Shown here: piece after piece, positions 9,341 through 24,901 of the stretch
Numbering within the stretch: the stretch's first letter is position 1
Layout of the letters: each line of letters starts with the position of its first letter
From: Patescibacteria group bacterium
Lineage (GTDB): Bacteria > Patescibacteriota > Patescibacteriia > Veblenbacterales > UBA10138
Length of the DNA stretch: 60,040 bases
Assembly (NCBI GenBank): GCA_041648575.1
Contig: JBAZOT010000007.1
Span: forward strand, 1 to 60,040
Reading direction: 5' to 3'
Notes under the pieces: model-generated
Database searches by the model: none
Told to the model about the DNA's origin: nothing
What the model saw: only the letters and a program-made list of their open reading frames with translations
Made by a program: the position numbers and the translations under genes

Positions 9341-9445
9341 ATGAAATTCATTTTAAAATCTCCTTTTAAACCAACTGGCGACCCCGAACAAGTCCCGCCT
9401 GTGGCGGGACTATACGGGGCGAGACGAGCTATAAAAAACTTATGA
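9341..9445 (+). pseudogene. Remnant copy of the uvrB 5-prime end (14 codons) fused to a GC-rich hairpin insert; 34-codon leader ORF ending in an ATGA overlap with uvrB
   Basis: MKFILKSPFKPTGD (9341-9382) parallels the intact uvrB N-terminus M-SKTR-FILKSSFKPTGD (9442-). The frame then runs through the insert to TGA at 9443-9445. TATACT -10-like box at 9324-9329. Confidence 0.7.
9382..9419. repeat. GC-rich hairpin insert between the two uvrB 5-prime copies
   Basis: CCCCG-AACAA-GTCCCGCC-TGT-GGCGGGAC-TATA-CGGGG; perfect 8-bp inner stem and 5-bp outer stem in AT-rich context. Confidence 0.75.
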
Positions 9446-23418: not shown

Positions 23419-23673
23419 CTATCCATACTTTAATTTTAATATTATTAACGATAACAACATTACCAATGTAATTGCACTCATAGCAATTAATGGATAACTA
23501 TTAATTCCATACCCATACACAATCCATAATATTTGCCCTATTAAATTAATCACGTTCCATAACATTGCTAAATCTCTAGTTGATTTTGTTTTCCAAGATT
23601 TTATAACTTGTGGAAGTAAAGAAATTGCTACAAATAATCCAGCTATAAAACCTATATATTCAATAAAATTCAT
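23419..23673 (-). CDS. SemiSWEET / PQ-loop family sugar transporter
   Basis: 84 aa, 3 TM helices, PQ motif LLPQVIKSWKTKST. Confidence 0.75.
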   Translation of the reverse strand: MNFIEYIGFIAGLFVAISLLPQVIKSWKTKSTRDLAMLWNVINLIGQILWIVYGYGINSYPLIAMSAITLVMLLSLIILKLKYG

Positions 23674-23763
23674 ACAGAAAATTATATTAAAAAATAAATA
23701 ATTACTTTAAATTTTATCAAGCTCGATTTTAAACTTCATCACTGGATACATTCTTAAGTGTAA

Positions 23764-23789
23764 CATAAAACCACCCCCACGAGGGATGG
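23764..23789 (-). terminator. Rho-independent terminator closing the tRNA transcription unit
   Basis: Minus strand CCATCCC-TCGT-GGGGGTGG-TTTTATG (one G-U pair). Confidence 0.65.
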
Positions 23790-23799
23790 TATAAAATTA

Positions 23800-23834
23800 T
23801 GGAGGCCAGGAGGGGAATCAAACCCCTGAATAGA
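23800..23834 (-). pseudogene. 3-prime half of a tRNA-Cys-like gene (anticodon-stem 3-prime strand, variable loop, T-arm, acceptor, CCA)
   Basis: Minus strand ACCTC TATTC AGGGG TTTGATT CCCCT CCTGGCC T CCA. Colinear with intact tRNA-Cys ACTCC TATAC GGCGG TTCGATT CCGCC CGTGGCC T CCA, with compensatory stem changes. Confidence 0.65.
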
Positions 23835-23874
23835 GGTTTTGTCATGCCTACGGCAGATCTCCCGAAGGGAGACC
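23835..23874. repeat. Direct repeat Y (approx. 40 nt) bounding the GIY-YIG / tRNA-Cys insertion
   Basis: ggttttgtcatgcctacggcagatctcccgaagggagacc; about 36 of 41 positions match repeat X at 24214..24255. Confidence 0.8.
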
Positions 23875-23894
23875 AAACCTTTCTTGTATTATCT

Positions 23895-23969
23895 TGGAGG
23901 CCACGGGCGGAATCGAACCGCCGTATAGGAGTTTTGCAGACTCCCGCCTTACCACTTGGCTACGTGGCC
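23895..23969 (-). tRNA. tRNA-Cys (anticodon GCA), CCA encoded
   Basis: Minus strand GGCCACG TA GCC AAGTGGTAA GGC G GGAGT CTGCAAA ACTCC TATAC GGCGG TTCGATT CCGCC CGTGGCC T CCA. Confidence 0.9.
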
Positions 23970-24263
23970 ATACTTCTGTTTAAGAATTTCTTTTTGTTGA
24001 CCTGTTTTATAAAACTTCTCTCCCCTAATCGCGTCTTTTCTGCTTTCATATTCCTGTATTTTCAGTAATTTCCATGGTCTATATCCTTTAGTGGATTTTA
24101 CTTTACCTTGATTGTGCTGACGAAAACGAACTTGGACATCAGCTGAGCTACCTACATAAATATCACCATTTAATAAACTAACTAAAATGTAAACGTAATA
24201 CTTAATAAATGATGGTTTTGTCGTCCCTACGGGAGATCTCCCGAAGGGGAGACGGACTCCCAC
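23949..24263 (-). CDS. GIY-YIG nuclease-family protein (small URI-domain type); start codon uncertain
   Basis: YYVYILVSLLNGDIYVGSSADVQVRFRQHNQG...PWKLLKIQEYESRKDAIRGEKFYK. No in-frame ATG before the domain; the only upstream start is GTG at 24263, inside the tRNA-like 5-prime half. The last 7 codons overlap tRNA-Cys (23949-23969). Confidence 0.7.
   Translation of the reverse strand: MGVRLPFGRSPVGTTKPSFIKYYVYILVSLLNGDIYVGSSADVQVRFRQHNQGKVKSTKGYRPWKLLKIQEYESRKDAIRGEKFYKTGQQKEILKQKYGHVAKW
24214..24255. repeat. Direct repeat X (approx. 42 nt) bounding the GIY-YIG / tRNA-Cys insertion
   Basis: ggttttgtcgtccctacgggagatctcccgaaggggagacgg; contains the perfect palindrome GGGAGATCTCCC and alternating GGGAG/CTCCC segments. 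Confidence 0.8.
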
Positions 24264-24301
24264 CTCACCACTTGCCTGTCTACCGTAGGTAGAGCTACCT
24301 G
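24251..24301 (-). pseudogene. 5-prime half of the same tRNA-Cys-like gene, with a 19-nt hairpin inserted in the D-arm
   Basis: Minus strand GGCCAGG TA GC[TCTACCTACGGTAGACAGG]CAAGTGGTGAGGT G GGAGTC versus tRNA-Cys GGCCACG TA GC-CAAGTGGTAAGGC G GGAGTC. Acceptor GGCCAGG pairs with CCTGGCC at 23804-23810. Confidence 0.6.
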
Positions 24302-24332
24302 GCCCAATACTTATGACACACTAGACTCTAAC

Positions 24333-24374
24333 AAAAAAAATGAGAAATAGCAATCCGCTTTCCTCATTTTCTCA
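24333..24374 (-). terminator. Rho-independent terminator of the 3D-domain gene
   Basis: Minus strand ATGAGAAA-20 nt loop-TTTCTCAT-TTTTTTTT. Confidence 0.7.
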
Positions 24375-24385
24375 TTAGTTAATAA

Positions 24386-24901
24386 TTATAAAACCTCAAC
24401 TGTTAAGTACTGCAAACCCCAATCCTCTGCTTGCTCCCTGGTTAACATCCAAATGTCAACTCTTCGGGAAAAACGATCATTCATTCTATCTTCTACTACA
24501 AACACCTGATCGCCAAAATATTCAGGAATTCTAATCTGAGCGCCCAAGGGTAACCAATTGGCTGCTACGATTCCTTCGTGCACTACTGCACCCGAGGCAG
24601 TAATAAACGGCGTATCATCAGTCTGGTCAATAGTGGAAGAATAAGCAGTAACAATAATCTTGACACTATAACGTGCTGACCGCAAATCATTCTCTGGAAA
24701 ATTCTGCGCAGTTATTTGAGATAAAGAAACATCTTCAATTAAAGCTGTGTTTACTATTGATCCATCAAACGATGCTGCCGCAACTGAATGTTGAGGAAAT
24801 GTCCATTCCAAAGCCAAAGTAAAAATTGCTACAAAAATCAGGACTTTTCTTATAGTCTGTTCCAATTTCTTATCTTTAGCGTATTTTCTTAGATATTTCA
24901 T
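24386..24901 (-). CDS. 3D-domain (MltA/RlpA-like) cell-wall protein with an N-terminal TM anchor
   Basis: VTAYSSTIDQTDDTPFITASGAVVHEGIVAANWLPLGAQIRIPEYFGDQVFVVEDRMNDRFSRRVDIWM. Confidence 0.75.
   Translation of the reverse strand: MKYLRKYAKDKKLEQTIRKVLIFVAIFTLALEWTFPQHSVAAASFDGSIVNTALIEDVSLSQITAQNFPENDLRSARYSVKIIVTAYSSTIDQTDDTPFITASGAVVHEGIVAANWLPLGAQIRIPEYFGDQVFVVEDRMNDRFSRRVDIWMLTREQAEDWGLQYLTVEVL

Follow-up and report, generated by a model that had tools for sequence, protein, structure and literature searches.

A tRNA-Cys gene broken at its anticodon by a cassette of a GIY-YIG nuclease gene, double hairpins and an intact tRNA-Cys in a Patescibacteria group bacterium

Introduction

The locus studied here raises the question of how a tRNA-Cys gene came to lie in two halves on either side of a small GIY-YIG nuclease gene and a second, intact tRNA-Cys(GCA), and of what kind of element such an arrangement represents. 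It is found in a stretch of 60,040 nt from a Patescibacteria group bacterium (contig JBAZOT010000007.1; hereafter the window), to which all coordinates without a prefix refer and in which all features of the cassette lie on the minus strand; L-numbers such as L001, L212 and L213 are labels of related loci or contigs. A preliminary description had read the locus as an ancestral tRNA-Cys gene split in its anticodon loop by a nuclease-associated insertion that brought a replacement tRNA-Cys with it. We found that the resident tRNA-Cys is broken between G34 and C35 by a cassette holding the only intact tRNA-Cys of the locus, and that relatives show the same site in empty, occupied and scarred states. 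We lean towards the explanation that a cassette of nuclease and hairpins, resembling the Ssn family of nucleases, invaded the resident tRNA-Cys(GCA) at G34/C35 and supplies a replacement tRNA-Cys.

Results

Anatomy of the broken tRNA-Cys gene

In the direction of the minus strand, the locus is built of the following features, given with the evidence for each of them.

24316..24340, minus strand: promoter-like block TTTTTTTGTTAGAGTCTAGTGTG of the resident tRNA-Cys gene, also found before the plain tRNA-Cys in L213 and L212 and before the 5' half in L001
24253..24304, minus strand: 5' half of the outer (resident) tRNA-Cys, nt 1-34, ending at G34 (repeat against the inner tRNA; ARAGORN call of the joined halves)
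24275..24293, minus strand: D-loop insert of the 5' half, 19 nt, TCTACCTACGGTAGACAGG, with a perfect 15-nt hairpin at 24293-24279 (its removal is needed for tRNA detection)
24221..24252, minus strand: repeat X, a double hairpin, TCTCCCCTTCGGGAGA plus TCTCCCGTAGGGACGA, between G34 and C35 (repeat pair with Y; module family and covariation)
24207..24220, minus strand: leftover stretch corresponding to tRNA nt 35 to about 46, CAAAACCATCATTT, separating X from the start of the open reading frame (ORF) (aligns with CAAAACCTCTATTC of the 3' half)
23949..24206, minus strand: gene of a single-domain GIY-YIG nuclease, 85 codons (PF01541; conserved residues; ratio of nonsynonymous to synonymous substitution rates, dN/dS)
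23895..23969, minus strand: intact inner tRNA-Cys(GCA) with encoded CCA (ARAGORN; Rfam RF00005, 67.8 bits)
23873..23894, minus strand: linker of 22 nt, rich in A up to the closing 8 nt (AGGTTTGG), derived by decay from tRNA nt ~22-34 (alignable with its counterparts in L001, L002 and L212)
23842..23872, minus strand: repeat Y, a double hairpin, TCTCCCTTCGGGAGA plus TCTGCCGTAGGCATGA (91% identity to X)
23800..23841, minus strand: 3' half of the outer (resident) tRNA-Cys, nt 35-76 with CCA (repeat against the inner tRNA; test of the joined halves; match to L212)
23770..23790, minus strand: hairpin resembling an intrinsic terminator, followed by a T run

Every element that the preliminary description had listed is thus present, with the 5' half moved from 24301-24251 to 24304-24253 and the 3' half from 23834-23800 to 23841-23800. 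The 5' half reads GGCCAGG TA GC, the 19-nt hairpin insert and CAAGTGGTGAGGTGGGAGTCCG, the 3' half reads CAAAACCTCTATTC AGGGG TTTGATT CCCCT CCTGGCC T CCA, and CAAAACC follows directly after repeat X. A repeat finder gave 91% identity between X and Y over 35 nt, where a compensatory exchange of C/G for G/C relative to X keeps hairpin 2 of Y paired, and aligned the inner tRNA with the 3' half at 79% over 42 nt and with the 5' half at 87% over 23 nt. The breakpoint had been placed in the anticodon loop, and the module indeed sits exactly between G34 and C35. The resulting cassette of about 410 bp comprises X, tRNA nt 35 to about 46, the GIY-YIG gene, the intact tRNA-Cys, the linker and Y; it holds no tyrosine or serine integrase gene, the contents of the insert being only the GIY-YIG ORF and the tRNA. 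From its conservation and position the upstream block (24340-24316) may be taken as the putative promoter, in which a simple sigma-70 scan gave no consensus match. An ORF of 89 aa on the plus strand (23799-24068) only reads the 3' half, Y and the inner tRNA in antisense, and is not a gene.

That the arrangement should be an artefact or chimera of assembly, caused by repeated tRNA sequence, is hardly conceivable. One Logan assembly does break within the inner tRNA, but the two Logan contigs of run SRR8449827 that cover the locus overlap consistently over that break, an intergenic stretch of 712 nt in the ENA assembly ERZ27249422 is identical to the window base for base, and the same architecture is found in dozens of unrelated assemblies.

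The outer halves make up one tRNA-Cys

The preliminary description had taken the two halves as parts of one tRNA-Cys, and this was borne out when both inserts, the D-loop hairpin and the G34-C35 insert, were removed in silico: ARAGORN then called the joined halves as a 75-nt tRNA-Cys(GCA) with acceptor stem 7/7 and T stem 5/5. With either insert retained it gave no tRNA-Cys call for the joined halves, and in intron mode (0-600 nt) on the native locus it called only the inner tRNA, the outer one being missed because the D-loop hairpin blocks detection. The intact gene was likewise identified as before, as tRNA-Cys(GCA) by ARAGORN and with 67.8 bits by Rfam. Searching 23500-24600 against Rfam at E <= 10 returned the inner tRNA and chance matches only. 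On this result a group I intron, a transfer-messenger RNA (tmRNA) and other known RNAs were rejected; Rfam gave no intron family either at its gathering threshold or at E <= 10. The sequence of the locus outside ORF and tRNA amounts to only ~100 nt.

The outer anticodon stem, GGAGT/ACCTC, has one mismatch and one wobble. Its 3' strand ACCTC pairs perfectly with the 5' strand GAGGT of L212, and the window's outer 5' strand GGAGT is that of the inner tRNA. Since GGAGT matches the inner tRNA and pairs imperfectly with ACCTC, the strands suggest that the 5' half may have undergone partial gene conversion. In the window, as in L009, L019, L044, L046, L047 and L050, the outer 5' acceptor strand is unlike that of the inner tRNA and is fully complementary (7/7) to the outermost 3' half, as nesting predicts.

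The upstream part of the locus is strongly conserved. Between the window and L001:2835-2900, the block, the 5' half and most of the D-loop insert (TCTACCTACGGTAGACA, 24279-24340) show 1 mismatch in ~58 nt, and of the D-loop insert the 16 nt TCTACCTACGGTAGAC are identical in L001, with the last 3 nt differing. In the adjacent ORF, by comparison, synonymous substitutions between the two have nearly reached saturation (dS 0.94). The near-invariance of the 5' half would reflect either functional constraint as a promoter or leader, or homogenisation by gene conversion.

Empty, occupied and scarred sites in relatives

Syntenic loci were located through homologues of a 171-aa neighbour gene. An empty site, such as the preliminary description had hoped to see in related genomes, was found in L213 (neighbour 54% identical), which has the block TTTTTTTGTTAGAGTCTAGTGTG, a single plain tRNA-Cys, 41 nt and then polA, and is a clean empty site. 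The closest relative, L212 (neighbour 87% identical), has the same block and an intact tRNA-Cys without a nuclease gene; downstream of this tRNA-Cys follow a decayed linker and the first Y hairpin, aligning with L002, and further on an unrelated 68-aa ORF with no Pfam match, a 3' tRNA remnant GATTCCCCTCTTGGCCTCCA, a terminator and polA (interval L212:4674-5215). As read from these alignments, the scar in L212 points to gain and later loss of a cassette. Set beside the occupied window, L213 shows the site empty and L212 shows it scarred.

The resident tRNA-Cys of L212 agrees with the window's outer 3' half at 40/42 positions and with the inner tRNA at 33/42, a comparison that, judged on its nucleotides, shows the outer 3' half to be orthologous to the resident gene of L212. 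With the empty site in L213, these values sustain the earlier reading of a tRNA-Cys split in its anticodon by a nuclease cassette with a replacement tRNA. When relatives were ranked by similarity to the inner tRNA to see whether it is foreign, the best was the distant L004 (0.90), with the syntenic L008 at 0.81, a tentative ranking given how short the sequences are.

In L216 the tRNA-Cys is plain, with an ORF of 93 aa upstream of it. Insertions seem to gather in the interval from tRNA-Cys to polA, where the window has a gene of the PQ-loop type and one of the PALP type.

The design recurs in dozens of related bacteria

A protein database held 123 relatives of the nuclease, the named ones nearly all from Patescibacteria, and 446 were found in GTDB contigs of one genome per species; the recurrence counts below are for the loci of the best 80 relatives, of which nearly all are Patescibacteria. 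In 64 of these 80 the start of an intact tRNA-Cys(GCA) lies inside the ORF or closely behind it, in most cases with tRNA-Leu(UAA) next, and in 7 a different tRNA lies 3' of the ORF; the arrangement is no isolated case but family-wide in Patescibacteria. The protein match extends into the tRNA in 45 loci. Most loci have, 5' of the ORF, a copy of tRNA-Cys nt 1-34 ending in ...GGTCTG, a hairpin module and CAAAAC (nt 35-40), with the ATG some 10 nt on, and in several of them this upstream 5' half is identical to the inner tRNA at 33/33 positions. In at least 23 loci the intact tRNA leads, by way of a short linker, into a unit made of nt ~22-34, then a module, then nt 35-76; L011, L012, L019 and L051 have two to three such units in tandem. 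The upstream module is present in at least 36 and the downstream module in at least 23 of the 80 loci. A contiguous tRNA-Cys interrupted by the module alone was found in none of them, two matches of that kind being artefacts of the deletion window.

A like layout, with a 5' fragment carrying TC...GA hairpins, the ORF and an intact tRNA of the type from which the fragment derives, was found at tRNA-Glu, tRNA-Ser(TGA/CGA), tRNA-Arg(TCG) and tRNA-Leu(GAG) (L004:4760-5150, L084:1930-2311, L082:1880-2340, L081:1870-2341, L069:1135-1590 and L059:1925-2340). The break lies between anticodon positions 35 and 36 in the tRNA-Ser loci, and one of the non-Cys cases is in a genome of Flavobacteriaceae (Croceitalea). 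The literature searched held no description of GIY-YIG genes fused to tRNA-Cys in Patescibacteria.

The GIY-YIG nuclease gene

The ORF matched Pfam PF01541 (GIY-YIG) with E = 3.9e-16, as its sole Pfam match, over residues 21-91 of the 104-aa gene call. All 14 columns that are invariant in a 29-sequence alignment of nuclease relatives are present in the window's ORF, including Y17, G19, R27, H31, N32 and E63. The nearest PDB chains were those of UPF0213 proteins, 1zg2 (E = 3.9e-6) and 1ywl, followed by SLX1, and no NCBIfam model scored above its cut-off (TIGR01453, 28.6 bits against a cut-off of 56). The relatives are 80-90 aa long, and the 85 aa of the window's protein hold the catalytic domain only, with neither a DNA-binding domain nor a linker. 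Compared with the syntenic copy in L001, the gene has a dN/dS of 0.105 at a dS of 0.94, which indicates long-standing purifying selection on the nuclease. Searches with tblastn gave 3 weak matches on plasmids and 2 weak ones on phages, and no bridge to characterised Ssn proteins.

At its 3' end the ORF overlaps the inner tRNA by 21 nt, that is by 6 sense codons and the stop, in agreement with the overlap of seven codons first described, and many relatives end in ...KYG(H/L/V/Q)VAKW, coded by the 5' end of tRNA-Cys. As to the 5' end, the initial observation that the ORF has no ATG stood, but the GTG named there as the only upstream start is not the only candidate: an ATT, common to both independent assemblies, occupies the position of the relatives' ATG, and the GTG (24263-24261) lies upstream of it, inside the 5' half. 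Translation of the window's nuclease may be weak, or may start at the GTG and run through X, or the gene may have been silenced recently. Gene callers took the GTG at 24263, giving a 104-aa product of which the first 19 residues are read-through of the 5' half and X, and several database relatives of 100-117 aa probably share this artefact. The N-terminus of P0109, VMPPADLPKGDKT, is closely like the reverse-complement translation of the window's repeat Y, VMPTADLPKGDQT.

X and Y are double-hairpin modules under covariation

Repeats X and Y had been described as direct repeats, which they are, at the identity given above; they are not a simple target duplication but structured double-hairpin modules with covariation. 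The canonical module has 30 nt in two units of T-C-N-N-N-C, a 3-nt loop and G-N-N-N-G-A, giving two 6-bp hairpins. For the analysis of covariation we used 44 distinct 30-mers picked by their flanks alone, so that pairing had no role in selection. Standard pairs filled 96.2% of the cells compared with 76.6% in shuffles, and there were 86 double-change cells compared with 25.7 in shuffles, 0/500 of which reached 86; when the partner columns were slid, pairing fell to 17-49%. The loop of hairpin 1 is mostly T-N-C and that of hairpin 2 mostly G-N-A or A-N-A. A T-N-C loop followed by a G-N-A loop gives the same pattern on the reverse complement, i.e. dyad symmetry. Sequences of the form C(GNA)G make very stable mini-hairpins in DNA. 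The dyad symmetry and this stability point to an element acting at the level of DNA rather than RNA.

Modules were also found in the D-loop (after GTAGC) and the T-loop (often TG^CA) of outer halves, and within other modules. In repeat X of L001, a 31-nt nested hairpin lies inside the second hairpin (L001:2935-2975, compared with 24236-24221 of the window), and nested modules are present in L013, L017, L042, L051 and L087 as well. The hairpins evidently turn over quickly. The close relatives L013 and L022 differ by nested hairpins.

In 310 kb of related loci, hairpin units peaked immediately 5' of the ORF, where a single bin of 100 nt had 94 of them, and immediately 3' of the tRNA, and were at or near background elsewhere. 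In the rest of the 60-kb window there was no hairpin of the module type, the only isolated perfect hairpins of the searched form being at 9393 and 47850. The X/Y repeat reaches past the module on either side, with medians of 9 nt (left) and 7 nt (right), the Y module typically begins ~16 nt after the intact tRNA, and the ATG follows ~10 nt after X.

An unbiased search of metagenomes for one module type found it on at least 120 contigs (L092-L171; e.g. L122:420-449, L110:253-319 and L098:645-7042). About 9 of 81 distinct sites adjoin a tRNA or a GIY-YIG gene. At the junctions TT^CA, TG^AA and TG^CA are preferred, and a flanking direct repeat of at least 5 nt was seen at 21 of the 81 sites compared with about 6 expected, with most sites having none and many lying within short tandem repeats. 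In metagenome communities the module is thus dispersed as well, and probably mobile. The preliminary description had allowed that X and Y might be a common dispersed repeat with no relation to the insertion; they are indeed common in metagenomes, yet tied to this kind of cassette. Dispersed modules are often embedded in AT-rich tandem repeats with short units (CAATTTT, AAATTG, TTTTTGTG), some form tandem pairs 7 nt apart, and L098 has four copies in 13.5 kb, all with C-rich flanks (CCCC|module|CACC).

Discussion

Its recurrence across dozens of related uncultured bacteria gives the cassette the look of a selfish element that destroys an essential gene and stands in for it. Among described systems the nearest is the Ssn family, whose members, single-domain GIY-YIG nucleases, cleave single-stranded DNA (ssDNA); SsnA has 94 aa (Chenal et al. 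2025, PMC11893778). Ssn proteins bind hairpin repeats in ssDNA, termed NTS or SRM, and cut a few nucleotides upstream of them; 71% of the genes have such repeats nearby and 42% are flanked by them on each side, a layout of repeat, gene and repeat that was called IS-like, and the paper contains no mention of tRNA (PMC11893778). The locus described here shares with this family a small single-domain GIY-YIG protein (85 aa as compared with 94 aa in Neisseria SsnA), a gene set between inverted repeats of 20-50 nt that fold into hairpins (here X and Y), hairpin cores of TCCCGC...GCGGGA as compared with TTCCCGCG...GCGGGAA in NTS, and repeats that can be many and dispersed. It differs from the family in that its module is a tandem pair of hairpins with dyad symmetry, and in that gene and repeats sit inside a tRNA gene together with tRNA halves and a replacement tRNA.

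The parallel first drawn was with SegB of phage T4, a free-standing GIY-YIG homing endonuclease in a tRNA gene cluster that recognises the T-psi-C motif (PMC2330249; PMC13096335). SegB acts on a 27-bp site in double-stranded DNA, spreads with neighbouring tRNA genes and drives their segmental amplification (PMC2330249; PMC13096335). In both cases a GIY-YIG nuclease gene lies among tRNA genes, and, as with homing endonucleases of that type, presence and absence are polymorphic, with an intact empty site in L213 and the ORF absent from L212. The comparison nevertheless had to give way to that with the Ssn nucleases (PMC11893778): unlike the phage-borne SegB with its 27-bp site, the single-domain protein of 85 aa has no room for a DNA-binding domain, is chromosomal in Patescibacteria, and is tied to hairpin repeats inside a broken tRNA gene.

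In form alone the modules also recall the double-hairpin elements (DHEs) of fungal mitochondrial DNA, in the outline in which these are cited from Paquin et al. 2000 (PMC10085805, PMC7218506). Two adjacent stem-loops, compensatory changes in the helices, nested copies and a suspected link to mobility are features that DHEs, as so outlined, have in common with the modules, whereas the host there is a mitochondrion and the element here targets a tRNA anticodon. Integrase islands in tRNA genes similarly leave displaced partial tRNA copies by a restored intact gene, and serial events lead to arrays of 3' fragments; unlike such islands, the cassette has no integrase, breaks the gene in the anticodon instead of at its 3' end, and packs a whole tRNA and a nuclease into ~410 bp. 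In atp6 of Allomyces, a mobile endonuclease ORF reportedly carries a duplicate gene end, so that there, as here, insertion of an endonuclease ORF would displace part of a gene and supply a replacement copy.

From these features we infer the following mechanism for the mobility of the cassette. The 85-aa protein would be an Ssn-type nuclease that recognises hairpins in single-stranded DNA, with the double hairpins as its cognate repeats. Owing to the dyad symmetry of the module, cuts would be possible on both strands, each some 10-13 nt upstream of the hairpins, and would leave the anticodon arm bracketed by a staggered break. The cassette would next be copied in by recombinational repair or fill-in, with duplication of the anticodon arm and the module as the X/Y repeat; the extents of the repeat (9 and 7 nt), the start of Y ~16 nt after the tRNA and the ATG ~10 nt after X fit a staggered break of ~10-13 nt per side. 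As U33 and the GCA anticodon together read TGCA, and the module would insert at TG^CA, we propose that the preference for tRNA-Cys is explained in this way. Loss of the cassette would need precise recombination, and the cassette would be addictive because it holds the only intact tRNA-Cys. The whole unit may be transcribed from the resident promoter block and end at the resident terminator, and since the stop codon of the ORF lies inside the tRNA, processing of the inner tRNA by RNase P would leave a stop-less mRNA and low expression of the nuclease. It is possible, though to our minds doubtful, that nuclease and double hairpins form an undescribed autonomous mobile unit, that is a gene-replacing and addictive homing cassette with hairpin-guided cuts on both strands and a passenger tRNA. 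For such a unit, insertion into an essential single-copy tRNA gene would do no harm and later loss would kill; it would be widespread in Patescibacteria and would also lie at other tRNAs in Bacteroidota and Ignavibacteriota.

Several observations weigh against an invading cassette, and some of them would suit an explanation without mobility that we consider less likely but plausible, namely that the nuclease has long been passed on vertically within the tRNA-Cys operon and serves the host there (e.g. by control of incoming ssDNA, as proposed for Neisseria SsnA). The half-tRNAs would then be by-products, with hairpin repeats entering exposed TG^CA loops of nearby tRNA copies, and breaks made by the nuclease would lead to local segmental duplications and deletions, with no horizontal invasion and no imported tRNA. 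Synteny on the polA side in the window, L001 and L002 despite a dS of ~0.94, with the low dN/dS, speaks for long vertical inheritance across lineages and not for frequent homing, and the viral contigs scanned held no relatives of the nuclease. In many loci the upstream 5' half is identical at 33/33 positions to the inner tRNA, as gene conversion or a local duplication would make it, the intact tRNA of L212 resembles the remnant downstream of it, module and 3' half stand in tandem arrays after the intact tRNA in the four loci named above, and SegB of T4 is known to drive segmental amplification of tRNA genes (PMC13096335). Further difficulties for the invasion are that the intact inner tRNA retains the TGCA target, that most related loci have the upstream half only, without a downstream half, that the outer acceptor strands are unpaired in many other loci, and that the window's ORF is without an ATG, with ATT (24206-24204) exactly at the ATG position of L001 and L002. 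The SRM pattern HGTCWYN(0-2)YYVSBRHN(0-5)WNVSBRGN(0-2)RNCYNB gave 2 matches in 314 kb on both strands, none of them at modules, and block, 5' half and D-loop hairpin appear conserved far beyond what would be expected of a dead fragment at the dS of ~0.94 in the adjacent ORF. Against a resident nuclease, on the other hand, stand its patchy presence in close relatives, with L213 clean and empty and the ORF lost in L212, and the window's inner tRNA, which lies off the resident lineage (33/42 as compared with 40/42) and has its best match in the distant L004. The presence of the design at five tRNA types and in several phyla, finally, argues for repeated colonisation.

That the outer halves are instead a functional split or intron-containing tRNA, joined at the RNA level into a second tRNA-Cys, seems to us very improbable. 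Such a tRNA would be in keeping with the intact outer acceptor (7/7) and T (5/5) stems of the window, with the compensatory acceptor changes between the window (GGCCAGG/CCTGGCC) and L002 (GGCCTGG/CCAGGCC), and with the confinement of modules to loops (D, anticodon and T), the stems being spared. The outer anticodon stem has its mismatch and wobble, however, the D-loop holds a further hairpin, and X and Y are direct repeats and not complementary, so that no bulge-helix-bulge junction could form. No Rfam intron family was found at any threshold, most related loci lack the 3' half or have mismatched outer strands, none of the 80 has a contiguous, otherwise intact gene interrupted by the module alone, and the dyad-symmetric loop pattern is one expected of a DNA-level element.

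If a nuclease and hairpin cassette did invade tRNA-Cys, this would account for the odd N- and C-terminal extensions that gene callers give to these small proteins of Patescibacteria, and it calls for caution with half-tRNAs beside tRNA-Cys in these genomes, which would be relics rather than split genes. Pairs of module and nuclease, each with its own stem sequence, could also yield sequence- or structure-specific tools for ssDNA. The cassette would represent a bacterial, DNA-level route to "tRNA genes in pieces", until now discussed mainly for archaea. For the Ssn-type hairpin nucleases, with a biological role so far known only in Neisseria, it would provide a concrete genomic behaviour, that of colonising, breaking and replacing essential tRNA genes.

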